A DNA stretch of 32,000 nucleotides from Parasynechococcus marenigrum WH 8102 (lineage in GTDB: Bacteria; Cyanobacteriota; Cyanobacteriia; PCC-6307; Cyanobiaceae). Positions 11,366 to 32,000 of the stretch are shown here, piece after piece; the stretch's first letter is position 1, and the number at the start of each line of letters is the position of its first letter. The stretch is taken from NCBI RefSeq assembly GCF_000195975.1, contig NC_005070.1, positions 390,001 to 422,000 on the forward strand. Direction: 5' to 3'. The notes below the pieces were generated by a model, which made no database searches, had not been told where the DNA came from, and saw only the letters and a program-made list of their open reading frames with translations. The position numbers were made by a program, and so were the translations under genes.

Positions 11366-12661
11366 TCAGATCCCCAGTCGCTCCCAGATCACGCCGAGAT
11401 TGGCCTGATGCAGTTCGGTACTGAAGCAGTCCGCCAGCTGATCGGCTGACAGCCGACTGGTGACATCCGCGTCGGCTTCCAGGTTGGCGCGGAAATCACC
11501 GCCTTCATGGTTCCAGGCGGTGTGGGCGTTGCGCTGCACGATCCGATAGGCCTCTTCTCGGCTCATGCCGGTGCCCACCAGGGCCAGCAGCACCCGCTGG
11601 CTAAATACCACGCCGCCGTAGACGTTCATGTTGCGGCGCATGTTGTCGGGATAGACGCCAAGACCCTTCACCACGCTGGTCATCTCCCGCAGCATGAAAT
11701 GAAGGGTGACGGAACAGTCCGGCAGCATCATCCGTTCGGTGGAGCTGTGGCTGATGTCGCGCTCGTGCCAGAGGGCAACGTTTTCCAGGGCTGCCACTAC
11801 ATAGCTGCGCAGCACCCGTGCCAGGCCGCTGATCCGTTCGCTGCGGATCGGGTTGCGCTTGTGGGGCATGGCGGAGCTGCCCTTCTGGCCCTTGGCGAAG
11901 TTCTCCTCCACCTCGAGCACATCGGTGCGCTGCAAGTTGCGGATCTCCGTCGCGAAGCGGTCGAGGGAGGCGCCCACCAGGGCCAGGGTCTGCACATAGT
12001 CGGCATGGCGATCGCGGGAAATCACCTGGCTGCTGGCGGTATCCGGCGTCAGTCCGAGGATTTCACAGGTGATGGCTTCCACCTGGGGGTCGGTGTTGGC
12101 GTAGGTGCCCATGGCCCCACTGATCTGCCCAATGGCCACCTCTTCTTCCAGCCGCGCCAGGCGGCTGCGGTTGCGTTCGGTTTCCGCCAGCCAGCCGGCG
12201 ATCTTGAAGCCAAAGGTAATCGGCTCCCCATGAATGGCATGGGAACGGCCGATCATTTCGGTGGCTTTGTGCTCGCGGGCCAACGCCCGTAGGGCGTCGG
12301 CCAAGGCATCCAACTCCAGGCGGAGCAGGGCCACGGACTGTTTCAGCTGCAGCGCCAGGCCGGTGTCCAACACATCGCTGCTGGTCAAGCCCACATGGAT
12401 GTGACGGCCGGCATCACCGACGTGTTCGTTCACGTTGGTGAGGAAGGCGATCACGTCGTGGCGCACTTCCGCTTCGATCTCGAGGATCCGCTCCACGGAG
12501 AAGTGGGCCTTGGCTTTGATTGTGTCCAGGGCGTCTTGGGGAACACGGCCGAGGCGGCAGTTGGCTTCCGTGGCGGCGATCTCCACATCCAGCCAGCTCT
12601 GGAATTTCGCCTGCTCACTCCAGACGGCTCCCATTTCAGGCAGGGTGTAACGCTCGATCAC
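11366..12661 (-). CDS. purB: Adenylosuccinate lyase
   Basis: The N-terminus is IERYTLPEMGAVWSEQAKFQSW. The fumarate-lyase signature is GSSAMPHKRNPIRSE. Similarity is full-length. The start is GTG at 12661 (giving the usual M-IERYT N-terminus) or GTG at 12679 as in the ORF track. Confidence 0.95.
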   Translation of the reverse strand: MIERYTLPEMGAVWSEQAKFQSWLDVEIAATEANCRLGRVPQDALDTIKAKAHFSVERILEIEAEVRHDVIAFLTNVNEHVGDAGRHIHVGLTSSDVLDTGLALQLKQSVALLRLELDALADALRALAREHKATEMIGRSHAIHGEPITFGFKIAGWLAETERNRSRLARLEEEVAIGQISGAMGTYANTDPQVEAITCEILGLTPDTASSQVISRDRHADYVQTLALVGASLDRFATEIRNLQRTDVLEVEENFAKGQKGSSAMPHKRNPIRSERISGLARVLRSYVVAALENVALWHERDISHSSTERMMLPDCSVTLHFMLREMTSVVKGLGVYPDNMRRNMNVYGGVVFSQRVLLALVGTGMSREEAYRIVQRNAHTAWNHEGGDFRANLEADADVTSRLSADQLADCFSTELHQANLGVIWERLGI

Positions 12662-12712
12662 CGGACGACGCGGATGCACAACCTGCTGACTCTATGCAGT
12701 GGTCGAAACCAT

Positions 12713-12741
12713 AAAAAAAGACCCCTCGAGTGAGGGGTCTT
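12713..12741 (-). terminator. Rho-independent terminator of the KGK-repeat gene
   Basis: The minus strand reads AGACCCCTC-ACTC-GAGGGGTCT followed by TTTTTTTAT. That is a 9-bp GC-rich stem (extendable), a 4-nt loop and a 7-T run. It starts about 21 nt after the stop at 12762. The T-run follows the stem only on the minus strand. Confidence 0.8.
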
Positions 12742-12761
12742 GAACTGAATCTGATTGGTGA

Positions 12762-13415
12762 TCAGGCGTCAAACTTGACCCACTTGGGAGCTTCTTCGAG
12801 GTTCTTGGTGGTGAAGGTATCATCGCCAACAACCAAAGTGTCCTTCTTGTTGAAGTCGGAAAGAACAAGCTTGCCCTTGCCTTTTTTATCAGTAACTTCA
12901 ATTACGTCTTTACCTTTGCCAGAAATAACGGTAGTTTTTCCTTTCAACGTGCCGCTAAAAGTAATAGTGTCACGACCTTTTCCTGTAGAAATAGCTGCAG
13001 CTTTGAGGGTAGAGTCAGCGCCAAACGAAATGGAATCTTCTGCCTTGCCCTTTGCGGTAGTGATAGAAGGCTTCAATAACTTACCTTCCTTGGCGGTAAA
13101 TTCGATAGCACCTTTGCCAGTAGAAGTTATTTCGAGACTTGCGGCTTTTGTGACAGAGAGGGTGATGTTCGCTGTCTTTCCTTTAGGAGCTTCGTTGATA
13201 AATGAAGCATTTGTAAGACGTGATCCAGTAATCTCAGTTTTTTCCTCACCCTTGAGCCCAAGATTGAGACCTTCAATAGGTGATGAAATGGTGATTTCAC
13301 TTGATACACCATCTTCAGACGCGATTACTTCGATTTTGCCAGCATCGGCTTCATCGACGACAATAACGTTGGAAATAACATCGTCTTGGACGACGGACGG
13401 TATGGTGGTCGCCAT
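12762..13415 (-). CDS. Small secreted-type repeat protein (KGK / GKGxD-I-x-F repeats, no signal peptide, no Cys), in a low-GC islet
   Basis: The product is 217 aa with an ATG start. About seven KGK-initiated beta-strand-like repeats are visible: KGKTANITLSV, GKGAIEFTA, KGKAEDSISFG, GKGRDTITFSG, GKGKDVIEVT, KGKGKLVLSDF. The C-terminal VLSDFNKKDTLVVGDD resembles the xDFxxxxDxLxL ends of RTX-type exoproteins. The strand was chosen from terminator polarity and motif periodicity. Confidence 0.7.
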   Translation of the reverse strand: MATTIPSVVQDDVISNVIVVDEADAGKIEVIASEDGVSSEITISSPIEGLNLGLKGEEKTEITGSRLTNASFINEAPKGKTANITLSVTKAASLEITSTGKGAIEFTAKEGKLLKPSITTAKGKAEDSISFGADSTLKAAAISTGKGRDTITFSGTLKGKTTVISGKGKDVIEVTDKKGKGKLVLSDFNKKDTLVVGDDTFTTKNLEEAPKWVKFDA

Positions 13416-13480
13416 GATGAAGGAAGAAAATTAAAATACTTCCTAATCATATTAATCCAATCACACAGCTTGAAAAGGTG
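13416..13480 (-). promoter_or_regulatory. Putative promoter and 5' leader of the KGK-repeat gene
   Basis: The region is AT-rich. A minus-strand TAATAT (-10-like) lies at 13449-13454, about 34 nt upstream of the ATG. I found no convincing -35. A weak hairpin GGAAG-N12-CTTCC abuts the start codon. Support is weak. Confidence 0.25.
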
Positions 13481-13602
13481 GTTAAGGCCACAAATTCGAG
13501 CGGGACATGCCAGCTTCGTCTGATATGAGGCTCTTTATGGGCTCTTGTTTCCTAAAAAGCCTTTCCAGGACAGTCATTAGCAGCTTATGGACTAGTGATA
13601 TC

Positions 13603-14811
13603 TCAGGTCACGACTTGCTCACGAACCCTCTGAAACAGCTGCTCGTAGCCCTCCATAGCCTTGCTGAGGCCTCCGTGGCGTTCGATCCAGCTCCGCCCGG
13701 TGGCTCCCAAGGTGCGAGCCTGCTGAGGTTGCTCAAGCAACTCAATCATCCGGTTGGCTAGGCCCTCGGCGTCGTTGAACGGCACCAGCGCCAGGGCGTC
13801 TGTGGCCTCCTTGTGCAACTCCACCGCGATCGGGCTGTCGGGGTTGCTGATGATCGGAGCTGAGCAGGCTAGGGCCTCCAGCACACTCCACGACAAGGTG
13901 TAGGGGTAACTCAGGGCCACATGGCAGGCGCTGCACTGCAGCAGCGTCAACATCGCTGCGTGGGGGAGTGGCCCCAGGTGATGGATCTGCTCGCGATTTA
14001 GCGTGTCCGGCAGTTGCTCCAGGGCATCGACAAAGTGGTCTTCACCCTTTGGCGGTTGCAGGCCATATCCCTGACCCGTGCCGCCCACCAGCACAAGCTG
14101 TGCCTCCGGCAGGGCCAGGCTGACGAGGGGCCAGGCCTTCAGCAGTTGCCGCAAGCCGCGGAGGGGTTCGAGGTCGCGGGAGATGAAGGTCACCAGCGGT
14201 TGGCCGGCCCTGAACTCAAGGGCCTGTTCGGGAAGCTCCAGGCAGGCGTTTGGATCTGGCATGATCCGTTCGAGATCAACGCCTTCCGGCAGCAGGGTCA
14301 GGCGCTGCTGCAGGTCCGGCGGAAAGCTGAGGAGCTGGCTGCGGCTGGCCACCACGGCTGCGGATGACTGGAACACGGCCAGTTCGGCAATCAGGTTGGC
14401 ACTGCTGAAGCTGGTGGCGTCCGGCTCAAACCCGTCGAGATCCTGATCAAACCCGAAGCCAAGGGAGCGGGAATTGCCCCATAACTCCGGGTAGCTGATC
14501 AAGGGCACATCCCCGCAGACGCGCTGCAGGCAGAGGGCTTCTCCCCAGGCGCTGTGGCTCATCACCAAATCGGGTGGATGCTCCTGATCCAGAAGCTGCT
14601 CGACCAACCTGGCGACCGCCAGCCCTCGTTGCAGTTGGGATGGCGCCTGTTCAAAGCAGTATTGCAAATAGGTGAGGCCCTGCCACTGCAGACCGCTCGG
14701 TGCCTCCGCCATTGATCCAATGGCTGTGACCTGATGCCCGGATGCCAGCCAGGCCGGTGCTAGATCACGGAATTGGCCCGGAAAATTCTGGTGGATCAGC
14801 AGCAGATGCAT
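13603..14811 (-). CDS. Glycosyltransferase, GT4 / group 1 family (GT-B fold)
   Basis: The N-terminus MHLLLIHQNFPGQFRDLAPAWLASGHQVTAIGS is typical of one GT4 subfamily. The C-terminal donor-binding block is ALSYPYTLSWSVLEALACSAPIISNPDSPIAVEL (EX7E-like). Confidence 0.85.
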   Translation of the reverse strand: MHLLLIHQNFPGQFRDLAPAWLASGHQVTAIGSMAEAPSGLQWQGLTYLQYCFEQAPSQLQRGLAVARLVEQLLDQEHPPDLVMSHSAWGEALCLQRVCGDVPLISYPELWGNSRSLGFGFDQDLDGFEPDATSFSSANLIAELAVFQSSAAVVASRSQLLSFPPDLQQRLTLLPEGVDLERIMPDPNACLELPEQALEFRAGQPLVTFISRDLEPLRGLRQLLKAWPLVSLALPEAQLVLVGGTGQGYGLQPPKGEDHFVDALEQLPDTLNREQIHHLGPLPHAAMLTLLQCSACHVALSYPYTLSWSVLEALACSAPIISNPDSPIAVELHKEATDALALVPFNDAEGLANRMIELLEQPQQARTLGATGRSWIERHGGLSKAMEGYEQLFQRVREQVVT

Positions 14812-14867: not shown

Positions 14868-15890
14868 ATGGGGTTGCGCAGCTGGTTCCGACGACAGCTG
14901 AGCGGGGAAAAGAACCGTATTGATCTGGTCACGCCGGCCAGGGTCTCCCTCACACCTCCTGCCCATGCAGGTCTCGATGCATCGACCATCCCTGCCCCCT
15001 GGTCTGTGGCGCGGCTGCAGGCCCTGTTTGAAGCCTTGGCCCATCAGCCATCCAAAACCAGTGATCAGGCGGCACGTCTGGCGCGGCATCAACTGTCGAA
15101 GTTCTGGCTGGCAGCCCCGGTGGATCAACTGCGACTGTTGTACGAGGGGGAGATCGGTGACCTGCAGCGGCTGCAGTTGACCGGTCCGCTGGTGCAACAG
15201 CAACTGGCGGCTGATGAAATCCGCTGGCGTGATCAGCTGCTGCAACGGCTAGAGGATCCCGCCCGAGCTGCAGAGCGGGTCAACCTGCTGCTGGCACTGA
15301 TGCCTTACACCCAACCGCGCAAGTTGTCGGTGGCCGATCCCCTGAGCACCTTGCCGGACTGGTTGCTGAACGACTATTGCGTCTACTGCGAGCCGGACCT
15401 GGCAGTTCCGGTGGGGTTGTTGGAACCAGCAAGCGAGATCGAGCCCCTCACCGATCGGCGGGGAGAGGAGGCGATGGTGTGGTTCCGCGACGAGGCTGTT
15501 GTGGCCCGCATGCAGGAGCTGATCCAGGCCTACAGCGCCGATCCGACGGCAGCAGACACAAGGCAGGAACTGGCGGGCCTGCGACGGGTGTTGGCGCAGC
15601 TGTGGCTGGATGTTGAGCCTGTGCAGCTGCAGACCCTCGATCAGACGACCGTGGGGGCGGTGACGCGGGCGCTGATCGGCTCTGGATTCAGCGCTGTCCT
15701 GCAGTCTCAAGACGATGTCAGCGCTCGAGAGCGGTTGGCAGCTGATCCGGTCGATCTCAGCCCCCCCGGAGTCGAAGGACGTGTGGTGGCGGCTTTGCTG
15801 TTTTTGCCGACTGGAGCGGTGCAGCTGGAGAGCAAGGAGGGGCTAGCCCCCTGGTTGATCGAGATCCTGAGTCAGCACATGGCCGGGTAG
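14868..15890 (+). CDS. Hypothetical protein (340 aa, helical, Leu/Gln/Ala-rich)
   Basis: This is ORF 14742-15890. I prefer ATG 14868 (MGLRSWFRRQLSGEK), which is downstream of the divergent GT4 start at 14811. I recognise no motif. Coding status rests on length and non-shadow-like composition. Confidence 0.55.
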   Translation: MGLRSWFRRQLSGEKNRIDLVTPARVSLTPPAHAGLDASTIPAPWSVARLQALFEALAHQPSKTSDQAARLARHQLSKFWLAAPVDQLRLLYEGEIGDLQRLQLTGPLVQQQLAADEIRWRDQLLQRLEDPARAAERVNLLLALMPYTQPRKLSVADPLSTLPDWLLNDYCVYCEPDLAVPVGLLEPASEIEPLTDRRGEEAMVWFRDEAVVARMQELIQAYSADPTAADTRQELAGLRRVLAQLWLDVEPVQLQTLDQTTVGAVTRALIGSGFSAVLQSQDDVSARERLAADPVDLSPPGVEGRVVAALLFLPTGAVQLESKEGLAPWLIEILSQHMAG

Positions 15891-16625
15891 CGGAGGCGGC
15901 TCCTCACCTCGCAACAGGTGCTCCACCCGCTTCTGGAGCCAGTCGCTGAACAGATCCTCCAGCAGGATCTGACGGGTGGAGTCATCGAGGCGGGATCCCT
16001 GCCAGTGATCCAGGCGCAGGATCACCCAGATGTTGACCAAGAAAAACGGTGCCCAGAGCTGGCCTGGTTGGCTGATACGCAGCTTCTCCACCAGCACGGG
16101 ATGGGCCTGACTCAAGGACACCGGACCGATAAGCCCGCCACTGTCGCGTTCGTCGCCTTCGGAGTAACGGGCTGCCAGCTCTTTAAAACTGTCTTCATTC
16201 TCCAGGAGCCGTTGGTGTAGCTCAAAGGCCAGATCCCCATCGCTCAGGCGGATCAGGGAGTAGTGAATCTGATCCAGGTCCGCTTTGCTGGCGAGAAAGC
16301 GAAGTTCCACCTCCTCCGCGAACATCAACCTCTGGAAGCGTTGCAGCCGCTCCGCTTTGGTAGCGAAGTAGAGGAAGTCCTCCTGCTGCCATCCCTTGGC
16401 AGTGAGGAACTGTTCCAGGTCAGCATCAGCATCGAGATTCTCCCGGCTTCTGTAGGCATCCACCAAGTCCTTCTCGATGGCCTGGGGCAAAGGAACGGCC
16501 CTGCAGATCTCATCGAACACCGCAGCCTGGGCGATAGCGAGGCAAAGCCCTTGCTGCCGGGCGATGCGATTCAACGTCTCGGCTGAGCAAAAGGGTCGGC
16601 CGGGGTGGAGTTCGATCTCAGTCAT
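15843..16625 (-). CDS. Parvulin-type peptidyl-prolyl cis-trans isomerase (PpiC/SurA/PrsA-like)
   Basis: The rotamase core is FKELAARYSEGDERDSGGLIGPVSLSQAHPVLVEKL...GQLWAPFFLVNIWVILRL. It is the last gene of the ABC-HlyD operon. Its ATG at 16625 overlaps the stop of the small membrane protein gene by 8 nt. Confidence 0.8.
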   Translation of the reverse strand: MTEIELHPGRPFCSAETLNRIARQQGLCLAIAQAAVFDEICRAVPLPQAIEKDLVDAYRSRENLDADADLEQFLTAKGWQQEDFLYFATKAERLQRFQRLMFAEEVELRFLASKADLDQIHYSLIRLSDGDLAFELHQRLLENEDSFKELAARYSEGDERDSGGLIGPVSLSQAHPVLVEKLRISQPGQLWAPFFLVNIWVILRLDHWQGSRLDDSTRQILLEDLFSDWLQKRVEHLLRGEEPPPLPGHVLTQDLDQPGG

Positions 16626-16890
16626 GGAACTCCTTCCACACCAGCCAGTACACCAGCCAGCCCACAGGGGGCACCAGCAGCAGGGGCATCAAGGCGAAGA
16701 CCGTGATGACGGGTTGTCCCACCAGCAGCGGCATGGACCACACAAGTAAATAAACGACAACGGTGAAGCTGACGCGTTGCCGCCGCCCCCCCAGCCAGGC
16801 TTTGAGACGCTGCAGCTTGAGCGCCAAACGTGCGGTTCTGGTTCGTCGTTCAGGGGGAAGGTGATGCCAGAACGGGTGGGGAGATTGCAT
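16618..16890 (-). CDS. Small membrane protein (90 aa, basic N-terminus plus two predicted TM helices)
   Basis: The product is MQSPHPFWHHLPPERRTRTARLALKLQRLKAWLGGRRQR followed by VSFTVVVYLLVWSMPLLVG and VITVFALMPLLLVPPVGWLVYWLVW. An ATGA overlap with the HlyD stop lies at 16890. Its position and coupling in the operon support that it is a real gene. Confidence 0.6.
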   Translation of the reverse strand: MQSPHPFWHHLPPERRTRTARLALKLQRLKAWLGGRRQRVSFTVVVYLLVWSMPLLVGQPVITVFALMPLLLVPPVGWLVYWLVWKEFHD

Positions 16891-18152
16891 CAGCGCATCC
16901 GCTCGAGGCCGCGGCGTTTGTCATCCAGCAGATCGGTGATGGCCGAGATGAAGCGACGGTCTCTGAGGTGGATGTCGGCAGTGAGACTCATGCCCGGTTG
17001 CAGCGGCACCGAGCGTTGGCCCAACTGGAGCGATTGTCGCTGGAGTTTCAACACGGCTGGAAAGTACAGCCCCTGCGCCTCCTGCCCCAATTCCCGCCGT
17101 TGCTCATCTGGAGTTAGGGCATCGGATCCAACCCGCTCCACCGTCGCGGGCAGATAGGCAAAGTCACTGGCCTTGAACGCGTTGAGTGAGATGTCTGCCC
17201 GTTGATTGGTTCCCACGAAGCCGATGGCGTCATTGGGAATGAACACCTTGGCCTGCAGATCGTTCTGTGGAACCAACTTGAGCAATGGCTTGGGTTCCGT
17301 GTTCGGGTCGATGACGCTGCCGGCACTCACAGTGATGTCGAAAACCACGGCATCGATTGAGGCGCGTAGTTCAATGCGGGAAAGGCGCACGTCCGCTGCC
17401 CGGATCTTGCGGTCGAGCTCGGCGATGCTGCGCAGGTTCTGTTCAATTTCGCTGCGCATCACGGCCATGCTGCCGGCATTGGCGGCCCGATGGTTGGCGG
17501 TCAAGCTCGCCAGTTCCCGTTGCAGGGCATCCAGTTCGGTGCTGAGGTCATCCACATTGGAGCGAGCGCTGAGGGCTTGCAGTTCGCTGGTGGCTCCGTC
17601 CTCCAACAACAGTTGATAGCTCTCGGCGATCGTTTCGGCGGTCACCAGTGATCGCTGCAGCCCTGCAATCCGAACGCGGGTGCGCTGCTCGGCTTCCCGC
17701 TGGGCTGTCCTGACGCCTGACCGTTGTTCTCGCAGCTGTTGCAACAGGTTCAGCTGGTTGGGGGTGAGGTCTTCTTCAGGCCGTTCACCCAGCAGGACAC
17801 GGTTGATGATGATTTTGTTGTGCAGTGCTTCGCGTTGGATGCGGGCGGCATTCAGCTGAGCCTTGGTTTCGCGCGGATCAAAGCGCAACAGCAGATCGCC
17901 GGCCTTCACCGCTTGGCCTTCCTGCACCAGCACGCTGTCCACCACGCCCGGCAGAGCTGCCTCCACATCTTGGATGGCCTGTGTCGGTTGAAGCTTTCCT
18001 TGCACGGCCACCGTTTCCGGTAGCGGCGCGAGAAAAGCCCAGAGCGTGGCGAAGGTTGTGGTCCCCACCAGGGTCCACACCAGCACGGAGGAGTTCCGCC
18101 GGGTTTTGCGCAGAAGCACTGGTTGGTTGAAGCTCCAGGGCTTGTTCTCCAT
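16890..18152 (-). CDS. HlyD-family type I secretion membrane fusion (periplasmic adaptor) protein
   Basis: After ATG 18152 comes the N-terminal TM segment SSVLVWTLVGTTTFATLWAFLAP. The lipoyl-like hairpin is VQGKLQP...GVVDSVLVQEGQAVKAGDLLLRFD. A long coiled coil and a beta-barrel domain follow. The ATG at 18152 shares its A with the TGA of the ABC gene. The ORF-track extension to 18353 was rejected. Confidence 0.9.
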   Translation of the reverse strand: MENKPWSFNQPVLLRKTRRNSSVLVWTLVGTTTFATLWAFLAPLPETVAVQGKLQPTQAIQDVEAALPGVVDSVLVQEGQAVKAGDLLLRFDPRETKAQLNAARIQREALHNKIIINRVLLGERPEEDLTPNQLNLLQQLREQRSGVRTAQREAEQRTRVRIAGLQRSLVTAETIAESYQLLLEDGATSELQALSARSNVDDLSTELDALQRELASLTANHRAANAGSMAVMRSEIEQNLRSIAELDRKIRAADVRLSRIELRASIDAVVFDITVSAGSVIDPNTEPKPLLKLVPQNDLQAKVFIPNDAIGFVGTNQRADISLNAFKASDFAYLPATVERVGSDALTPDEQRRELGQEAQGLYFPAVLKLQRQSLQLGQRSVPLQPGMSLTADIHLRDRRFISAITDLLDDKRRGLERMR

Positions 18153-20992
18153 CAGCTGAGACCTTCCTGGCTCTGGCTCTGATACAGGGCGTAGTACCAA
18201 CCCTGTCGCTCCATCAGCTCCTGGTGCTGGCCCACCTCCATCACGGCGCCCTGATCCATCAGCACGATCATGTCCGCCGGCCGCACCGTGGAGAGGCGGT
18301 GGGTGATGAAGAACACGGTTCGACCGCGGAAGGCTTCGAACAGGTTGCGACACACCTGACGTTCCGTCCGCGCATCCAGGGCACTGGTGGCCTCATCGAG
18401 GATCAGCATGCGTGGGTTCTGGAGCACGGCACGGGCCAGGGCCATGCGTTGACGCTGACCGCCGGAGAGCCCGGCTCCCCGTTCCCCCACCGATGCGTTG
18501 TAACCCTGAGGAAGCTCCATGATGAAGTCATGGGCGCAGGCGATGGTGGTGGCTCGGATCAGCTCCTGACTGGTGGCATCCGGTTTCACCATCAGCAGGT
18601 TGTCCTTGATCGTGCCGTCAAATAGCAGGGAGTCCTGGGGGACGACACCGATCTGGCGTCGCAGGGAATAAAGCTCAACTTTGCTCACGTCCAGGCCATC
18701 GATCTGAATCCGACCCTGTTCAGGTTCGTAGAAGCGAGGCAGCAGCTTCAGCAGGGTGGATTTGCCGGAGCCGGAGCCGCCGACCATGCCAACAAATGTG
18801 CCCATCGGAACGTCCAAAGAGACGTTGTTGAGGATCGGAGGGCCGTTCAGGCTGTAGCGGAAGTCGACGGAGTCGATATGAACGCTGCCCTGAATCAGGG
18901 GCATCGGGATGTTGCTGGCCTGAAGATCGCTTTGCTCGGTGGGACGGTCCACCACATCCGCCGCCAGGGTCAGATTGCGGCTTTGAATCTTGAATTGCTG
19001 CCAGGTCTGGACCAACTGCACCATCGGACCGGTGACCTTGCCGCCGATGATCCGGAAGGCGAACAGGGCACCGATGCTGAGCTCGTTGCGTGACACCAGC
19101 CAGACGCCGACAACCATCGTGGAGATGCTGGACAGTTCTCCCAGGAACTTGGCCAGGGCGCCGATGGTTTCCCCCGACACCTTGAGCTTGAAGTCTTCAC
19201 CGATGAAACGGCTATAACGGTCCTGAAATTCCCAGCGCGTCTTCAGTTCGGCGTTCTGGGACTTGATGGTCTGGATGCCGGTGAGGGCTTCGGTCAGATA
19301 GCTGTTGGTGTTGACCCCCTCCTCGATCGTGCGCTCGATCTGGGTCTCCACGACCGGATTCACGATGATGGCCAGCACGATGAACAGCGGCAGGGTGCTG
19401 AGGGTGACCAGAGTCAGCAGAGGATTCAGGGCAAACAGCACTGCCACGTACAGGAGGCTGAAGCTGAAATCAAGGATGGTGGTGAGCGCCTTGCTGATCA
19501 GAAAATCACGCAGGCGATCGAGCTGGGTGAAGTAGTAGGTGATCCGGCCGACCGGCCGCTCATCGAAGAAAGCCTGCGGCAGGCGGACAAGGCGATCCAG
19601 GATCGTTTCGCGGGTGTCCATGTCCACCCGGTTAGCGATGCCCGTGAAGATCAGACTTCTCAAGGCCGATGCAATGGCCTCAACCACCGTGGCGCCGATC
19701 AGGATCACGCCGATGCTGATCACACCATCGAGGGAATCGCTGCCTCCCGACCGGGCGTTGATCAGCCGCATGATCCCAAGGGGGGTCACCAGGGCCAGCA
19801 CGTTCACCACCGCTGAGGTGGCGATCACCTCAATCAGTTCGCGGCGGTGGGGGCGCAGGAACGGGCCATACCAGCCCCAGCTGAAACGCTGGGTTTTGCT
19901 GTCCGGACGGCGGCGCAGCAGCAGCAGGCTGAGGCGATCGGCCTCTTCGCTGAGCACAGCCTCGAGCGGCACACGGACCGGGCCGATCTCCGGCTCCAGC
20001 AAGCGAAGTTGCCCATCGGGGTCCACACCTTCGAGGATGGCGATGCGGCCGTCATGCTCCAGCACGGCGGGAGCCGGCGTGCGCCGAAGCTGAGCGAGGG
20101 GAATCTCCGCCAACGACACCGATAGATCAAGGTTGTTCAGCAGCTGGCCGATGTTGAATAGGTTGAGCTGGGGCTGCCTTGCCAGCAGGGCCTCCACTTC
20201 GTCACGCACGTTGTCGCGCCAGAACGGCACGCCGAAATGCTGAGCCAGTGCTTGGCAGAGGGCCATGGGAATGTCGCGGGGCCCACTGGCGCGCGGCAGG
20301 CTGAGCACCTCCGGTGTCAAATTGGTGCTGGGGGACGCGTCCGTCGGAACAATCTCGGCGGCAAAGTAGTTGTCCAGGGCCTGAAGTTTCGGATCTGGCA
20401 GCCAGATCAACCGTTGCTGCAGCCCTTCGTTGCTCGGCCTGGCTGGCCAGATCGTTCCATCGGGCCAGTGCCACTGGCCACCGCCCACGGTCTGCGGATC
20501 GTCGTTGTCGTGACCACTCGCTTCCCGTGCCATGGAATGGAGGCTTAGTGCGTTACGCCATTCCTCCAGTTGGCGTGCCCTGGCGGGGTTGGCTTGGGCG
20601 AGACGGATCATCAGATCCACCACTTCGATGGCGGGCATCTGCTGGGCACACCATTGGCTCAGCTTCGGTTGCTCATCCCAGAGCTGCAGAAACTGATCAG
20701 CGGGGATGAACTGGGTTTCGGTGAGATCGGAGGTGCGCAGGTGCTCGAGGGGTTGACCCTGAACAAGCCCGAGCCAACCCACAAGGTCGCCGACGCCATG
20801 GCGTTGCACCGTTCGCCAGTCCCCTTTGGGGGGCAGCTGCGCCATGCTGCGAACACCTCCCTTGGTGATTAACCAGACGCCGTCGGGGCGCTCGCCGGCG
20901 GCGACCAATTGCTTGCCCGTTCCATAGCGCCTTAGCTCTCCAGCTCCTGCCAGCATCGATGTGAGTGACGACGTTGGGCTGGATGCGGTCAT
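18152..20992 (-). CDS. Type I secretion ABC transporter (permease plus ATPase) with an N-terminal cyclic-nucleotide-binding domain and a C39-like peptidase domain
   Basis: Walker A is GGSGSGKST, the signature is LSGGQRQR, and Walker B is ILILDEATSALD. A six-TM ABC exporter core is present. The N-terminal domains are listed separately below. The start is ATG 20992 (MTASSPTSS) or TTG 21022. Confidence 0.9.
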   Translation of the reverse strand: MTASSPTSSLTSMLAGAGELRRYGTGKQLVAAGERPDGVWLITKGGVRSMAQLPPKGDWRTVQRHGVGDLVGWLGLVQGQPLEHLRTSDLTETQFIPADQFLQLWDEQPKLSQWCAQQMPAIEVVDLMIRLAQANPARARQLEEWRNALSLHSMAREASGHDNDDPQTVGGGQWHWPDGTIWPARPSNEGLQQRLIWLPDPKLQALDNYFAAEIVPTDASPSTNLTPEVLSLPRASGPRDIPMALCQALAQHFGVPFWRDNVRDEVEALLARQPQLNLFNIGQLLNNLDLSVSLAEIPLAQLRRTPAPAVLEHDGRIAILEGVDPDGQLRLLEPEIGPVRVPLEAVLSEEADRLSLLLLRRRPDSKTQRFSWGWYGPFLRPHRRELIEVIATSAVVNVLALVTPLGIMRLINARSGGSDSLDGVISIGVILIGATVVEAIASALRSLIFTGIANRVDMDTRETILDRLVRLPQAFFDERPVGRITYYFTQLDRLRDFLISKALTTILDFSFSLLYVAVLFALNPLLTLVTLSTLPLFIVLAIIVNPVVETQIERTIEEGVNTNSYLTEALTGIQTIKSQNAELKTRWEFQDRYSRFIGEDFKLKVSGETIGALAKFLGELSSISTMVVGVWLVSRNELSIGALFAFRIIGGKVTGPMVQLVQTWQQFKIQSRNLTLAADVVDRPTEQSDLQASNIPMPLIQGSVHIDSVDFRYSLNGPPILNNVSLDVPMGTFVGMVGGSGSGKSTLLKLLPRFYEPEQGRIQIDGLDVSKVELYSLRRQIGVVPQDSLLFDGTIKDNLLMVKPDATSQELIRATTIACAHDFIMELPQGYNASVGERGAGLSGGQRQRMALARAVLQNPRMLILDEATSALDARTERQVCRNLFEAFRGRTVFFITHRLSTVRPADMIVLMDQGAVMEVGQHQELMERQGWYYALYQSQSQEGLS
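19912..20305 (-). other. Domain: C39 peptidase-like domain, apparently non-catalytic (CLD type)
   Basis: RDIPMALCQALAQHFGVP...LNLFNIGQLLNNLDLSVSLAEIPLAQL...PAVLEHDGRIAILEGVDPDGQLRLLEPEIG follows the C39 layout. By hand alignment to the canonical ECGLACLAMI motif, the catalytic Cys position is occupied by Ile. The NHFVVL His position also looks replaced. Confidence 0.6.
20677..20950 (-). other. Domain: cyclic nucleotide-binding (cNMP) domain of the ABC transporter
   Basis: ELRRYGTGKQLVAAGERPDGVWLITKGGVRSMAQLPPKGDWRTVQRHGVGDLVGWLGLVQGQPLEHLRTSDLTETQFIPADQF follows the beta-roll pattern of CAP/cNMP-binding domains. Confidence 0.75.
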
Positions 20993-21067
20993 CGACGGGC
21001 CAGAGCCGCGGATTCTGATCAAAGTACCTGCCGCTCCTTAAAGTCAGGCCATTCCTGGAAGGCGCCT

Positions 21068-27904: not shown

Positions 27905-29261
27905 GGCGGTGGAGTTGCAGTTGGCCGGGCTGATGCAGGGGCTGCAGCAGCAGCCCGTTGAAGGGGATGGCGTGGTTGATCTCGAGCAGGATGCGATTGA
28001 AGCCAGGCTGCACCGGATGCTCCACCACCTCCAAGGGCGCGCTCATGTTGGGGCAGTGGCGCAGCACCGTCAGGGTCAACTGGCTGGCCTGGTCGCTGTT
28101 GAATTCGATCAGCAGCTGGCCCTGGGGTGGGGAATTGAGCTGATGGATGTGAATCACTGGCACGGTTCCGATGGCCTCGAGCCGGCAGCCCTCCCCTTTG
28201 ATTTGCCGGAGCTCGCGGTTGTGGATGGCGTCTCCCACCTCGTGGAACAGCAGACTGTGACTCTGGGCCTGGGCCTCAGCCCAGCGCTGGGTGATGCGGG
28301 GGTGTGAGCGGCAGGCCAGTTGGGCGGCGAGGGCTTCGGTAAAAGCGTCTGAAGGCTGGTAGTCCGGCCGGGTGATCACACTGCGCAACAGCATCGAGCA
28401 GCCGTTGGCGTCGCTGTCGACACCGGCGAGGTAGCGCTCGGTTTCCGAGGTGATCAGCACATCGGGCTTGTAGAGCTCCACCAGGTCCGGCTGGAAATAG
28501 GGCCCCCGGATATAAAGCACATCGCGGAAATCCTGCGCGAAGAGATGCAGCAGGGTTTTGATGAAGCTGTCTCCGAAGAGCACCAGCCGGCGAGTCGTGC
28601 GGCTGAGGGGGTTGTGCAGCATCACTAGATCACCGGTGTTGCCGGGGAGGGCATCGGTGTTGGCGTAGGGCCAGGCTTCCCCGATCCAGGGGAAGCACAG
28701 GCCTGGGTTTGGCGTGTCGCGGCCCAACATCGCTCCAAGGTCACCGAGGCGGGGCTGCTGGCTGAGTCTGAACTGTGGAAACTCGCTGGAGAGGCCTGGC
28801 AGATGTTGACCAATGGCCTGGTACAGCGCCAGTTGGCCTGCTGCATTGATGTGGGTGTCATCGGCCCAGTAACTGCTGCCGCGGCATTCCGCTGCGATCA
28901 GGGCATCGAGTGGGTAGAGCACCTGCTCCTGGATCGGATCGCGTTGGCGCAGCAGTGGCGCGTAGGCGTTGAGGAACAGGCTGCGAATGTTGCGTTTGTA
29001 GGGCTGAGGCAACTGATCCCGCAGCACGAGGGGTTTGCAGGGCACCACCACATGCAGGTAGGGGATGCTCAGATGCGCTGCCCAGCCGCGCCGCTGGCGC
29101 AGGTTGCTGAGGAAGTTCTCCTGCGACTCGGGCAGCACGATGGCGGCGCCGGTGAGGTAAGCGAACTGGTTGTAGTTGCCTTCAAACAGAAACAGCTGGC
29201 CGTTGTGACCGATCAGCACGTTGTTGCTGACACAGCCTGGCTGCAGCCGTTCGCAGGGCAT
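27876..29261 (-). CDS. AlgJ/AlgX-like (SGNH-like, DHHW-type) putative polysaccharide O-acyltransferase with an extra C-terminal beta-rich domain
   Basis: YWADDTHINAAGQLALY resembles the DTHW block. Family-typical blocks RRLVLFGDSF and KPDVLITSETERYL are also present. ATG 29261 forms an ATGA overlap with the beta-barrel gene stop. No N-terminal TM segment or signal peptide is visible. This is a recognition-level call. Confidence 0.6.
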   Translation of the reverse strand: MPCERLQPGCVSNNVLIGHNGQLFLFEGNYNQFAYLTGAAIVLPESQENFLSNLRQRRGWAAHLSIPYLHVVVPCKPLVLRDQLPQPYKRNIRSLFLNAYAPLLRQRDPIQEQVLYPLDALIAAECRGSSYWADDTHINAAGQLALYQAIGQHLPGLSSEFPQFRLSQQPRLGDLGAMLGRDTPNPGLCFPWIGEAWPYANTDALPGNTGDLVMLHNPLSRTTRRLVLFGDSFIKTLLHLFAQDFRDVLYIRGPYFQPDLVELYKPDVLITSETERYLAGVDSDANGCSMLLRSVITRPDYQPSDAFTEALAAQLACRSHPRITQRWAEAQAQSHSLLFHEVGDAIHNRELRQIKGEGCRLEAIGTVPVIHIHQLNSPPQGQLLIEFNSDQASQLTLTVLRHCPNMSAPLEVVEHPVQPGFNRILLEINHAIPFNGLLLQPLHQPGQLQLHRLSWTTDAKG

Positions 29262-30724
29262 CAGAAGGCCAGTTCGGTGTAAATGCCAACGCGGGTGCGG
29301 CAATCACTAAAGGTGGTATTTTCGCGATTGCGGCATTCCTTGAGGTCAAAAGACTGATCCAAGGTTGGATTGACTCCTTTTATCGGATTCAAAGCTTCAA
29401 TCGAGATAGTCCAAGGGACTCGTTTGAATGGCTTGAGAGATACACCCAGGTCGATGTCGGTGCCGCTGTACTTGGCGTAGATGCCGAACCAGGGCCAAGG
29501 TGCAAAGCCGATGGATGCGATTGGTCCCACGTACACCTGATGGATGCAGTTTTCGTCGACGGCGGACACCGGTTTGCCGGCAAAGATCGAACGGTCGGCG
29601 CAGACAAAGGCCGAAGAGACGCCAGCGACATCGGGGTAATAGACATATCCCGATCGCTTGTCGTCGTATCGGTCTGCGAAGAGTGACGGGAAGAGGCCGC
29701 CACGCAAGGACTCTGGGTAGGAAATTGTGCCGATGTTGGTTTCGTTGTTGAAAACATCACTCATCAACCCCAGCGATACGGAAATGATCGGTGGTTCCAT
29801 CGTGTCGTTCAGACGAAATACCTTGGTGCCGAAGAGGGCAAAGTTTCGAGGCAAGTCGGTGGTTTCATCAAAGTGAAACAGCCTGTAGCCCGCAAAGGTG
29901 AGACCAAATGTTTGGCCGAGGTTTTTGGAGAGAACAAAACCAATTGATTGGCCCTCACCGAACTTGGTGCCAACGTCGTCGTCTCCAAAGGTTTGATCGC
30001 CAATCGTGAAATTGAACGGTGACCCTTCGCCGCTGAGGCTGTGCATGGTCCAGTGCAGATCAAAACTCAGGGCTGGTGAGTTCCACAAGCGAACCCGCGC
30101 TTCCAGCATTCCGTCGGCGCATTGGTCGAGAAAATCACCAGTTCGGCAATTCGGGGGACCAATGCGGGAGTCATCGATCGCAATCAGCGCAGCATTCACC
30201 CAGCTGTCTGGGTGACGCTGGAGCGCATTAAAGCCAAGATTGGGATAAACAGTGTCCCCAATCTGAATCATCGACCCTCGGGAATAGGCTGTGCGGTAAT
30301 AAATCTGATCAGCTTCGCTCATTAGCTGACCGTTGGGCCAGCGAAAACCTTCTTCATTGACTTCCTGATTTGATTTGTCTCCTTCAGTCTCTTCATCCGC
30401 AATGGCGATATTTCCTCTTTCATCTGAAGCATCTTGATCAACAGTTGGTTCCGTCCAGACCAACTGATCTGGCTCCAATCGTTCTTCTTCAGGGCTCAGT
30501 GGCTCCCAGATCTGAGCATTGGCCGGTGCATCTGTTGTGGGAACAGGTTTCCAGGAGTTGACCGTAGTCGTTCCAAGGGTGCTGGGCTCGACCGTCTGCC
30601 ATTGGGTCTGGGCCTGCAAGGCAGGGACACATCCCATGGGGACTGCAAGAGACACAGCCGCAACGCGGCGGTACAGCGACAACCGAACCCGAGACAACAA
30701 CTCAGGCCTCCAGCGTTGGATCAA
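29261..30724 (-). CDS. Outer-membrane beta-barrel protein (unknown family) with an acidic N-terminal linker
   Basis: The signal-like N-terminus is LSLYRRVAAVSLAVPMGCVPALQA-QTQ. Amphipathic strands alternate (FGLTFAGYRLFHF, WTISIEAL). The C-terminus is RVGIYTELAF, with the terminal Phe typical of BAM substrates. No SLH domain is present. GC is lower than in the flanks (hand counts of 40-50% in two sampled lines). The TTG start at 30724 is uncertain. Confidence 0.7.
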   Translation of the reverse strand: MIQRWRPELLSRVRLSLYRRVAAVSLAVPMGCVPALQAQTQWQTVEPSTLGTTTVNSWKPVPTTDAPANAQIWEPLSPEEERLEPDQLVWTEPTVDQDASDERGNIAIADEETEGDKSNQEVNEEGFRWPNGQLMSEADQIYYRTAYSRGSMIQIGDTVYPNLGFNALQRHPDSWVNAALIAIDDSRIGPPNCRTGDFLDQCADGMLEARVRLWNSPALSFDLHWTMHSLSGEGSPFNFTIGDQTFGDDDVGTKFGEGQSIGFVLSKNLGQTFGLTFAGYRLFHFDETTDLPRNFALFGTKVFRLNDTMEPPIISVSLGLMSDVFNNETNIGTISYPESLRGGLFPSLFADRYDDKRSGYVYYPDVAGVSSAFVCADRSIFAGKPVSAVDENCIHQVYVGPIASIGFAPWPWFGIYAKYSGTDIDLGVSLKPFKRVPWTISIEALNPIKGVNPTLDQSFDLKECRNRENTTFSDCRTRVGIYTELAF

Positions 30725-32000
30725 TCAGCAACCACCCGGCTAGTGGCGTTCCTTGCAGAGCCAGTTGCTCCCGTAGTTGTTGCAGTTGTTGGCGCTGGGG
30801 GGCGCCGGGTGCTGTGACCAGCAGCTGAGTGCTGCAGGTGCGACTGGCGAGCAGGTCGCGGCTGACTAGGAGCTTTCGATTGCCAAGAGCTGCGACGAGG
30901 GCCTGCTGAAGCTGCTCAATTTGGTTGTTGGGGAAGTTGCCTACGGGAATCAGAGCGACTGACTGAGCATCAGCGAGGGGACCCTCTGCCAGCAGCTGTG
31001 CTGTGCTGCTCCATTGCTCTGGAGCCATTGCCGGCAGACGCTCCAGCATTGGGCAAGGGAGCAAGGTTTTGAGCTCGTCTTCGCTGAAGACAAGGCCGCT
31101 GCGGCGATCGCGGATCAGGGCGGCGCCACAGCCCAGGACGAGCCCTCCAAACAGTCCCAAAGCCACCATCCGTTTCTTGCGGGGCGCAACTGGCTTGTCG
31201 AGCACAGTGGGGGTTGAAATCAACTCCCATGGATCGGTCTGACGGGCCTGATCGAGCTTGAGGCTTTGCAGCTGCACCTCAAGTTCAGCCAGGGTTTTCT
31301 CGTCCCTCAGTGCCGCCCGCACCAATTCGCGGTGTTTGAGCACCACCTCGCGAGGCCTCGTGAGAGACGCTAGCTGGGCCTCCGCTGTGATCAATTCGCC
31401 TTGCAGCAGTCCGATGGTCTGCTGGTTGATGTAAGCGATCAACCCACTGCGTTCGCGTTGAAGGCGTTGAATCGACTGATCCTGCGGGGTGAGCAGCGCT
31501 GACTGCTGCTGAAGTCTGGTTTCGACGCGCTGGAGCTGTGAGTAGATCTCAGTGTTTGCGGCCAGCTGGGGGGCTTTGTAAAGGGTGGTGTTTCCTGAAC
31601 GTTGTGCTGCAGCAATCCGCTGACGCAGGGCATTCACCTGATTCTGTGCTGCTTCGCGGCTGGCTTCCACAGACCCACCGTTCGTGCTTCCAGTCGCTCC
31701 CGTGGGCATGCCGTCTTGAATGCCAAGCCCATTCGCCAGGGCGTAGGCCTGAGCAGTGCGCATGGAGGTGGCGGATTGCTGGCGCAGCTTGTCGATTTCC
31801 TGTTCGAGGTAAGCCACGCCCTGGGTTAGGCCCCGGCGACGGTCTTTGCCGGAATACTCCTGGTAGGTGCGGGTGATGCGTTCCAGCACCGGCAGGATCA
31901 AATCTTCATCGGTGTCGCGATAGGTCAATGACAACACCGATGTGCCTTTCACCAGTTCAATCTCCAAGCTCCTGGTCCAATCGGTAATCACCCATTTGCT
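30702..32000 (-). CDS. Polysaccharide co-polymerase (Wzz/GumC/ExoP-like, PCP-2 type) with a degenerate C-terminal kinase-like domain. Partial; the N-terminus is probably beyond the right edge.
   Basis: The periplasmic Wzz-like start is VLSLTYRDTDEDLILPVLERITRTYQEY. A long coiled coil follows, then the second TM segment MVALGLFGGLVLGCGAALI. The roughly 135-aa cytoplasmic tail ends LLVTAPGAPQRQQLQQLREQLALQGTPLAGWLLID. The first TM helix expected for PCPs is not in the window. Confidence 0.8.
   Translation of the reverse strand, partial: SKWVITDWTRSLEIELVKGTSVLSLTYRDTDEDLILPVLERITRTYQEYSGKDRRRGLTQGVAYLEQEIDKLRQQSATSMRTAQAYALANGLGIQDGMPTGATGSTNGGSVEASREAAQNQVNALRQRIAAAQRSGNTTLYKAPQLAANTEIYSQLQRVETRLQQQSALLTPQDQSIQRLQRERSGLIAYINQQTIGLLQGELITAEAQLASLTRPREVVLKHRELVRAALRDEKTLAELEVQLQSLKLDQARQTDPWELISTPTVLDKPVAPRKKRMVALGLFGGLVLGCGAALIRDRRSGLVFSEDELKTLLPCPMLERLPAMAPEQWSSTAQLLAEGPLADAQSVALIPVGNFPNNQIEQLQQALVAALGNRKLLVSRDLLASRTCSTQLLVTAPGAPQRQQLQQLREQLALQGTPLAGWLLIDPTLEA

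Follow-up and report, generated by a model that had tools for sequence, protein, structure and literature searches.

SYNW0406 of Parasynechococcus marenigrum WH 8102: a probable RTX-like type I secretion substrate with alleles exchanged at a resident cell-envelope locus

SYNW0406 is a gene for a 217-residue protein of the marine picocyanobacterium Parasynechococcus marenigrum WH 8102 (also Synechococcus sp. WH8102). It lies on the minus strand at positions 12762-13415 of a 32,000-nucleotide stretch of DNA (RefSeq assembly GCF_000195975.1, contig NC_005070.1, positions 390,001 to 422,000 of the forward strand), and this whole stretch was analysed and is called the window here. We believe that SYNW0406 is probably a non-canonical type I secretion substrate related in manner to the repeats-in-toxin (RTX) exoproteins, that it forms a solenoid which is displayed on the cell surface or shed, and that its alleles are exchanged at a resident locus. 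The protein is expressed, is abundant outside the cell and keeps its C-terminus. Judged by the comparison of loci, the gene has long resided in a picocyanobacterial cell-envelope polysaccharide cluster. SYNW0406 is still annotated as "hypothetical" and belongs to no curated family. Apart from one network prediction that has no bearing here, a literature search on SYNW0406-0412 returned only two proteomics datasets, in which the protein was seen but never interpreted. The type I secretion of Gly/Asp-repeat proteins and the detection of SYNW0406 were already known, and the interpretation is new, so that the novelty is moderate. What is added is a predicted RTX-like solenoid without RTX repeats and a hot spot of allele replacement.

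The 217-residue translation matches every letter of NP_896501.1 ("hypothetical protein SYNW0406") as given by Christie-Oleza et al. 2015 in their Tables S5 and S6 for Synechococcus sp. WH8102 (PMC4949707). The adjoining SYNW0405 is purB (Cox and Saito, PMC3865332), and the window covers the SYNW0405-0412 region inside the cell-envelope polysaccharide cluster. In the WH8102 exoproteome, the share of SYNW0406 ranged from 1.3 to 5.5% across conditions (PMC4949707). The share was 1.3-2.1% after 4 days and 4.7-5.2%, about 3-fold up, in co-culture with a heterotroph. After 10 h, it was 4.1-5.5% in the light and 1.5-1.7% in the dark, and after phage addition it was 2.2-3.3% (PMC4949707). SYNW0406 occupies row 7 of the compiled exoproteome table, above SwmA. 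The exoproteins that rise in the dark are mostly cytoplasmic leakage, whereas SwmA, SwmB and the alkaline phosphatases fall (PMC4949707). The dark response of SYNW0406 is like that of SwmA, SwmB and the alkaline phosphatases and unlike that of the leakage proteins. The protein also rises together with the alkaline phosphatases in co-culture (PMC4949707). Figure 6 of Cox and Saito labels SYNW0406 as more than two-fold changed under phosphate stress in the transcriptome data of Tetu et al. 2009 (PMC3865332). Upstream of the gene, inspection for a Pho box gave a single good 8-mer, CTTAACCA, which is not conserved in A18-46.1, and no convincing box.

The published spectral counts in cell pellets were 8-20 for SYNW0406, 180-420 for the phycoerythrin MpeA and 4-11 for SwmA. 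The ratio of SYNW0406 to MpeA was approximately 0.03-0.04 in cells and 0.24-0.70 in the exoproteome, which gives a rough 7-20-fold enrichment outside the cell in a comparison of two laboratories and two quantification schemes. In the available part of the peptide table, the tryptic peptides of SYNW0406 cover residues 67-217 (PMC4949707). The C-terminal peptide WVKFDA (212-217) is among those detected in the exoproteome data (PMC4949707). This indicates that the C-terminus of SYNW0406 is not removed.

The SYNW0406 product has a mass of 22.6 kDa and is mildly acidic (pI 5.45). It contains no Cys, His or Tyr and 2 Arg. No signal-peptide or transmembrane-like segment was found in it, and the maximum of 19-residue hydropathy was only 1.15. 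The net charge is -9 over residues 1-60 and +8 over residues 61-180, which makes a charge dipole. The tripeptides GKG/KGK occur 10 times against 0.55 expected, and never more than 6 times in 20,000 shuffles. They fall in seven K/G clusters, each immediately ahead of a predicted β-strand. Residues 96-129 align with residues 141-172 as an internal repeat (hhalign E = 8e-5). The canonical GG.G.D motif has 0 matches in the protein, and Pfam HemolysinCabind did not match even at E ≤ 10. There are two motifs of the form G.G.D.[ILV].[FVIL], GKGRDTITF (145) and GKGKDVIEV (166), which are 21 residues apart, and both are the RTX nonapeptide minus its first Gly. The C-terminal SDFxKKDxLxV includes the family-invariant residues F188, K191, D192 and L194. 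An earlier reading of this DNA by a model that saw only the letters and their open reading frames (the sequence-only reading) had described a Cys-free protein with an acidic N-terminus and no signal peptide, about seven short strand repeats opened by lysine/glycine, no canonical GGxGxD and a C-terminal motif reminiscent of RTX exoproteins. All of these features were recovered in the present analysis. The charge dipole could seat the protein on an anionic polysaccharide that contains 3-deoxy-D-manno-octulosonic acid (Kdo), and we give this idea little weight because the relatives in Cyanobium are not rich in Lys.

No Pfam or NCBIfam model matched SYNW0406, and three distant relatives were likewise without a family. 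A match to Lipid_bd was below threshold (E = 0.004; 17 bits, cut-off 25) and was treated as noise. A word-indexed search found 52 clusters related to SYNW0406 at 43-100% identity, nearly all of 211-224 residues. An exhaustive profile search found 241 clusters (clustered at 50% identity, E ≤ 1e-3) in public data, many of 205-235 residues. Many relatives start with a perfect GGxGxDxUx, such as MATTVPGGDGTDVIL and MANTIPGGNGTDVVL (GGDGTDVIL, GGNGTDVVL), and this nonapeptide is degenerate in WH8102. The C-terminal half of the family is somewhat better conserved than the N-terminal half. The relatives P0049-51 carry an internal duplication of approximately 75 residues, and the Cyanobium-type relatives have approximately 250 residues with regular coils of the GAGDDTLI type. 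In P0062 (512 residues), the SYNW0406 domain is followed by a C-terminal RTX block (HemolysinCabind E = 7e-32). In P0089 (657 residues), it is fused to RCC1-like repeats; several RCC1-like ("alpha-tubulin suppressor") exoproteins rise in co-culture (PMC4949707).

The genes of an HlyB/HlyD-like exporter lie on the same strand as SYNW0406. A HlyD-family membrane fusion protein is encoded at 16890-18152 (minus strand), 3.5 kb away (Pfam HlyD_3; TIGR01843 type_I_hlyD at 165 bits, cut-off 209). An ATP-binding cassette (ABC) exporter is encoded at 18152-20956 (minus strand), 4.7 kb away, with a cyclic-nucleotide (cNMP)-binding domain, an HlyB-like N-terminal region, a transmembrane domain and a nucleotide-binding domain. 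The best NCBIfam match of the exporter is TIGR01846 type_I_sec_HlyB over model positions 6-693 (572 bits, cut-off 725). Its best bacterial match in the PDB is E. coli HlyB (7sgr/8dck) over residues 52-706, including part of the C39-like domain. Pfam Peptidase_C39 was undetected in the exporter, and the His of the HlyB sequence "GRHFIL" aligns to Ile; the Cys position was assessed only visually. An HlyB-like N-terminal region without the peptidase His is the transporter architecture that serves RTX-type substrates. The cNMP-binding domain covers exporter residues 31-116 (window 18152-21022; Pfam E = 3.5e-8) and is kept in most related loci in which a full-length ABC gene was called. Its presence in the exporter sequence hints at nucleotide-gated secretion.

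The link between these genes and SYNW0406 is deeply conserved. The order ABC(cNMP), HlyD, 90-residue protein, PpiC-like protein, protein of approximately 350 residues, GT4 glycosyltransferase (where present) and SYNW0406 relative was found in every informative context, from 100% down to about 25% identity. In the converse test, the ABC N-terminus was used as the anchor and gave 24 genome loci from marine Synechococcus, Cyanobium, Aphanothece and freshwater Synechococcus. Twelve of these loci had 9 kb or more of downstream DNA, and in 10 of the 12, with Cyanobium, Aphanothece and freshwater Synechococcus among them, a gene of the SYNW0406 family lay 7-8.6 kb downstream of the ABC gene and on its strand. 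A scan of genome contigs with the SYNW0406 alignment gave nothing confirmable, and the ABC-anchored scan succeeded. No other signal-less, non-enzymatic candidate substrate was conserved in the cluster. Because the HlyB/HlyD linkage is kept at 25-35% identity, in relatives that belong to other Synechococcus lineages, the idea of type I secretion stands on independent evidence. The sequence-only reading had suggested export by this HlyB/HlyD-like pair. The conserved linkage and the abundance outside the cell of a protein without a signal peptide speak for the suggestion, and passage through this very pair is what we infer.

The same data could also be read as those of an abundant cell-associated protein of the cytoplasm, periplasm or envelope that is released by lysis or in outer-membrane vesicles and not by the neighbouring ABC/HlyD pair, with its linkage reflecting a shared role in envelope polysaccharide biology. 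SYNW0406 is readily seen in cell pellets (8-20 spectral counts), the exoproteome is rich in phycobiliproteins, which represent leakage, and localisation predictors returned "Unknown" with only a flag for non-classical secretion (PMC4949707). The cluster is also full of capsule and polysaccharide genes, with KpsC/KpsS-like Capsule_synth, KdsB-like and KpsD-like Poly_export/SLBB proteins, an acyl carrier protein, a ketoacyl synthase, a glycosyltransferase and RgpF. However, the ratio of SYNW0406 to MpeA outside the cell is some 7-20 times that inside, the protein falls 3-fold in the dark, when leakage proteins rise, its synteny with the type I pair is deeply conserved, and one relative is fused to RTX repeats. 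We therefore regard release by lysis or vesicles as unlikely.

The fold of SYNW0406 was predicted with AlphaFold2 from 22 homologues. The model had a predicted local distance difference test score (pLDDT) of 92 and a predicted template modelling score (pTM) of 0.88, and it was all β except for one short helix. A distant relative, modelled from an independent alignment with a mean column identity of 33%, gave a pLDDT of 95, a pTM of 0.90 and the same strand rhythm. Foldseek searches with the two models against the PDB, and against BFVD, returned nothing significant (best E values 0.09, 0.22 and 0.02; template modelling (TM) score at most 0.37), and a profile search of PDB sequences with the SYNW0406 family gave no match. 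The top PDB neighbours were nearly all β-helices or β-rolls, none of them significant: the RTX region of CyaA, the antifreeze protein 3p4g, type I secreted lipase and protease, pectate lyases and two-partner-secretion domains. From the strand periodicity and the kind of weak fold neighbours, SYNW0406 is predicted to be a β-solenoid, with coils of approximately 21-22 residues and (T/S)GxGxD corners, that has no close relative among solved structures. The small solenoid protein proposed from the sequence thus received a confident all-β repeat model.

Some of these weak neighbours raise the question of whether a type I-secreted SYNW0406 could be an enzyme, namely a small β-helix lyase or epimerase that trims or modifies the Kps-like surface polysaccharide whose synthesis the flanking genes encode. 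Pectate lyases, the fucoidan lyase FdlA and the alginate epimerase AlgG are among them, and the gene sits between a glycosyltransferase gene and KpsD/KpsC/KpsS/KdsB-like genes. However, all fold matches to enzymes have E > 0.08 and TM scores of 0.37 or less, and His, Tyr and Cys are absent from the protein, which contains only 2 Arg. Across the family, the columns without variation hold Gly, Asp, Lys, Phe, Leu and Pro, and in the wider family they are reduced to one Gly and one Asp. Since these residues are of the turn or core type, SYNW0406 appears to be structural and not catalytic. The lack of conserved catalytic-type residues makes a structural or binding role at the surface likelier than an enzymatic one, and we consider the enzyme quite improbable.

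The base composition of SYNW0406 is atypical. In 300-nucleotide windows, the GC content was 0.41-0.45 at approximately 12750-13650 and 0.59-0.65 in both flanks. When all 654-nucleotide windows of the 32 kb were compared (mean 0.623, standard deviation 0.042), the coding sequence (GC 0.445) lay approximately 4 standard deviations under the mean, and the lowest value of the whole window (0.422) was inside SYNW0406. The GC content was 0.41 in the 180 nucleotides upstream. The GC content at third codon positions (GC3) was 0.42, and that of the neighbouring genes was 0.73-0.81. The relative synonymous codon usage (RSCU) of SYNW0406 correlated at -0.12 with that of the neighbours and at 0.15 with that of mpeBA/cpeBA of a related Synechococcus strain. 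SYNW0406 prefers ATT, TTT, AAA and GAA, where mpeBA/cpeBA prefer ATC, TTC, AAG and GAG; CTG and GTG are never used. Expression-linked codon bias was ruled out as the cause of the low GC3 (r = 0.15, with the reference from another strain). Because the codon usage is unlike that of highly expressed genes, the low GC points to a flexible, laterally exchanged gene pool and not to translational selection. The drop in GC and the AT-rich upstream spacer had been noted from the sequence by hand counts, with 57-60% for the flanks, which was slightly low. In a related Synechococcus, the phycobilisome rod region (L041) was also mixed in composition, with GC3 of 0.63-0.75 in the phycobiliprotein genes and 0.37-0.51 in the lyase/HEAT genes between them. 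This agrees with the atypical composition that Dufresne et al. 2008 (PMC2441476) describe for this part of the genome.

The WH8102-type locus (L001) was compared with a related locus (L006) by sliding identity. Identity was 92-99% through the GT4 gene, 48-75% across a cassette of approximately 0.7 kb, and 91-100% over the last ~130 nucleotides of the SYNW0406 gene, the terminator and purB. The low stretch begins approximately 190 nucleotides before the ATG and ends near codon 160-175. The swapped allele cassette is thus placed approximately at 12891-13626 (minus strand) and consists of the spacer and the first ~160-175 codons. Between the two loci, purB and kpsD were 98-99% identical and GT4 was 91% identical, whereas SYNW0406 was 67% identical with a synonymous divergence (dS) of 1.6. 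Within the WH8102 gene, GC3 was 0.37 over codons 1-173 and 0.60 over the final 45. Across the SYNW0406 alleles, GC3 was 0.39, 0.42, 0.49, 0.59, 0.61, 0.61, 0.67 and 0.74, and it was below that of the neighbours except in L014 (0.74). In all related loci examined, the orthologues, from 100% down to 33% identity, occupied the same slot between GT4 and purB. As this locus is occupied in all of the relatives examined, SYNW0406 is not an insertion. The comparison of loci indicates that it is a resident gene with cassette-like allele replacement and that the locus is a recombination hot spot.

The secretion genes show another pattern. The ABC, HlyD and PpiC-like proteins of L001 were 63-79% identical to those of A18-46.1, though purB and kpsD were 99% identical. 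The same three proteins were 90-97% identical to those of the metagenomic locus L007, whose GT4 and SYNW0406 orthologue were only 54-59% identical. The secretion genes and the gene of their presumed substrate are therefore exchanged in separate blocks.

If a gene functionally unrelated to its neighbours had recently come in beside purB, from a phage or from another phylum, this would account for the GC3 of 0.42 against 0.73-0.81, for the RSCU correlation of -0.12 and for the fact that the low-GC stretch stops exactly at the intergenic borders. However, orthologues down to 33% identity are found in the same slot, a tblastn search of SYNW0406 against 50,697 phage records gave no match, and all relatives with a known context are picocyanobacterial. 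No transfer RNA (tRNA) and no Rfam family was found in the window, and no integrase or mobility gene was found among the open reading frames scanned. A recent foreign origin is therefore very improbable and largely refuted. The "horizontally acquired islet" of the sequence-only reading fails as an insertion and holds in that allele replacement is itself horizontal. Its proposed check, whether homologues are confined to islands or phages, gave no support either, since no phage matched, the orthologues were syntenic and no presence/absence polymorphism was seen in related loci. The atypical composition and codon usage that had prompted the idea are real.

The coding frame of SYNW0406 rests on the open reading frame call, on a ratio of nonsynonymous to synonymous substitution (dN/dS) of 0.15-0.22 in this frame, on the AlphaFold2 pLDDT of 92 and on published peptides. 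An opposite-strand open reading frame at 12730-13434 (plus strand, 234 residues), open for 183-239 codons in 6 of the 8 orthologous loci and once named as a possible expressed product, is disposed of by mass-spectrometry peptides that fit the minus-strand product in two independent studies, by the minus-strand dN/dS and by its breakage in L013 (113 codons) and L015 (137 codons).

For SYNW0406 as a type I-secreted solenoid, we infer an export route, Ca2+ binding, a surface role and a selective agent as follows. Transcription would start in the AT-rich spacer, cover this gene alone and end at the strong terminator. The protein would be synthesised without a signal peptide and exported in one step, with its C-terminal signal uncleaved, by the ABC and HlyD proteins encoded 3.5-7.5 kb upstream. 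The outer-membrane channel would be encoded elsewhere. Outside the cell, the protein would fold into a β-solenoid, and its (T/S)GxGxD corners would probably bind Ca2+ as RTX β-rolls do, with the Ca2+ of seawater assisting the folding. It would then be held loosely on the cell surface or shed. The promoter and the N-terminal three quarters would be swapped between lineages by homologous recombination, and such exchange would fit an exposed molecule under phage or grazer pressure.

Several points weigh against this proposal. The ABC and HlyD scores are below the curated NCBIfam cut-offs, the cluster yielded no gene for an outer-membrane channel, and 2 of the 12 ABC loci had no SYNW0406-family gene within 10 kb. 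Exoproteomes also hold many lysis-derived cytoplasmic proteins, and the enrichment of SYNW0406 over MpeA comes from data that differ in laboratory and in quantification scheme. The available part of the peptide table contains no SYNW0406 peptide from residues 1-66, a gap that may reflect either N-terminal processing or simply two very long tryptic peptides. SYNW0406 is without a canonical RTX repeat, and its Ca2+ binding is putative. The overall dN/dS of 0.15-0.22 gives no direct sign of positive selection.

A wider view is speculative and in our opinion rather doubtful. The SYNW0406 family may be an unnamed, picocyanobacteria-wide class of small coat or decoy proteins, with type I secretion gated by cyclic nucleotides and with the N-terminal three quarters diversified as a target of phages or grazers. 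Gating by cyclic nucleotides would fit the 3-fold drop of SYNW0406 in the dark. If this view were true, SYNW0406 would be a main determinant of cell-surface identity in a very abundant phototroph of the ocean. Marine Synechococcus are among the commonest phototrophs on Earth, and the molecules that they display or shed shape their interactions with phages, grazers and heterotrophs. SYNW0406 is among the most abundant proteins released by WH8102, and it is now tied to a conserved type I module with a cNMP-binding domain. Its locus offers a concrete place to study surface diversification in picocyanobacteria.

The gene ends at an intrinsic terminator at 12713-12741 (minus strand, read from 12741 to 12713). 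The terminator consists of a GC-rich stem of 10 bp, 6 pairs of which are G-C, a loop of 4 nucleotides and a T-run. The surrounding 71 nucleotides fold at -23.7 kcal/mol (z = -3.8), a value equalled by none of 200 shuffles. In all 6 orthologous loci folded, a hairpin with a U-run follows the stop codon, and the stem sequence differs among them. As the stems differ at the same place, the terminator seems to be conserved by function and not by descent of its sequence. SYNW0406 is thus a real gene with a strong terminator of its own, as had been proposed. A separate hairpin of 5 bp, CUGAU-CACCA-AUCAG, embeds the stop codon at approximately 12749-12765 (minus strand). Hairpins with other stems stand at the same place in L005, L006, L011, L013 and L015, and none stands there in L007. 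The stop-codon hairpin could be due to chance or could be a 3'-end element.

The upstream spacer at 13416-13602 (minus strand, GC 0.41) presumably holds the promoter and the 5' untranslated region. No promoter was above the threshold of a consensus scan on its minus strand. A block of GGCATGTCCCGCTCG, TTGTGGCC and ACCTTTTCAA, in this order, lies at approximately 13475-13520 (minus strand), 60-110 nucleotides before the ATG of SYNW0406. It is kept in L006, where the spacer around it is only about 50% identical. This block is a possible regulatory site.

On the other side of the terminator, purB (SYNW0405) encodes an adenylosuccinate lyase of 431 residues at 11366-12661 (minus strand; Pfam Lyase_1 and ADSL_C), with a likely GTG start at 12661. 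The end of the T-run (12713) is approximately 50 nucleotides from this start. Between the two lies CATAGAGTC (12688-12696, minus strand), which contains the -10-like TAGAGT (12689-12694). CATAGAGTC is invariant in 5 of the 5 loci where purB follows, while the bases around it vary, and L013, in which purB is not the neighbour, lacks it behind the terminator. It is probably an element of the purB promoter, which would sit right behind the T-run of the terminator and partly inside it. The suggestion that the purB promoter is pressed against the terminator thus gains support.

The remaining genes of the region are as follows. The upstream neighbour of SYNW0406 is the GT4-family glycosyltransferase gene (13603-14811, minus strand), whose divergence partly tracks that of SYNW0406. 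It is followed by a conserved 340-residue cluster protein without a family match (14868-15890, plus strand), a PpiC-type rotamase-like protein (15843-16625, minus strand; Pfam Rotamase E = 7e-7, TIGR04500 far below its cut-off) and a conserved hydrophobic protein of 90 residues (16618-16890, minus strand), which was found in every locus with a flank that reached it. Farther away, a second stretch of lower GC (approximately 0.53 at 29400-30600) coincides with an open reading frame of 487 residues at 29261-30724 (minus strand). Its product has a signal-peptide-like N-terminus, ends in ...YTELAF, has no Pfam match and is probably an outer-membrane β-barrel. Judged from its sequence, the product of the adjoining open reading frame (30702-31991) resembles a Wzz-like protein for polysaccharide chain length.

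SYNW0406 resembles the RTX exoproteins, such as HlyA, CyaA and the alkaline proteases (PF00353; PMC3034196), in being signal-less, acidic and Cys-free with an uncleaved C-terminus. As in RTX systems, it is linked to an HlyB-like ABC protein without the peptidase His and to an HlyD adaptor. It shares with RTX proteins the Gly/Asp turns followed by short strands and a predicted parallel β-repeat fold, and the relative P0062 has a true RTX block. Unlike RTX proteins, SYNW0406 has no tandem GGxGxDxUx nonapeptides and no HemolysinCabind match, and it is very small (217 residues) with no separate functional domain. Its GxGxD turns are spaced by approximately 21-22 residues, one per coil, whereas those of RTX proteins recur every 9 residues. 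The neighbouring ABC protein differs from RTX transporters in its extra N-terminal cyclic-nucleotide-binding domain.

A likeness in the same organism is SwmA, an RTX-type S-layer glycoprotein of WH8102 with a 130-kDa polypeptide, which is required for swimming (PMC3034196). Both proteins are abundant in the exoproteome and respond alike to darkness and to co-culture. The SwmA repeats GGKAADSITF, GDTNKDTITF and GGADDDSLTF resemble TGKGRDTITF, KAEDSISF and SGKGKDVIEV of SYNW0406, and the large repeat proteins matched by the SYNW0406 profile are also matched by SwmA. The comparison used the first 399 residues of SwmA. For SYNW0406 as a mini-paralogue of SwmA, the sequence evidence was only marginal (hidden Markov model 16 bits, BLASTP E ~5e-4 in a set of 290 sequences, hhalign probability 50%), and the likeness is taken as a resemblance. 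SYNW0406 is also encoded elsewhere than SwmA, and an S-layer or motility role is not indicated by any evidence. The ABC/HlyD genes for SwmA export are presumably SYNW0193-0195, in a different cluster.

Region IV of the adhesin MpAFP (3p4g) is a Ca2+-dependent β-helix of 19-residue xGTGND repeats in a type I secreted protein. Like it, SYNW0406 has one Gly/Asp turn per coil of approximately 20 residues, and 3p4g was among the top matches of both models. Unlike it, the repeats of SYNW0406 are far less regular, the matches are insignificant (E 0.45-1.5, TM score of 0.31 or less) and there is no ice-binding or adhesin context. Finally, the locus can be compared with the hypervariable envelope islands of picocyanobacteria (Dufresne et al. 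2008, PMC2441476). Whereas those islands differ in their gene content, SYNW0406 is the varying allele of an always-present gene at a fixed locus, with no integrase or tRNA at its borders. It shares with them the atypical composition, the richness in glycosyltransferases and the mosaic divergence, and these islands have been proposed to help the cells avoid phages and grazers (PMC2441476).

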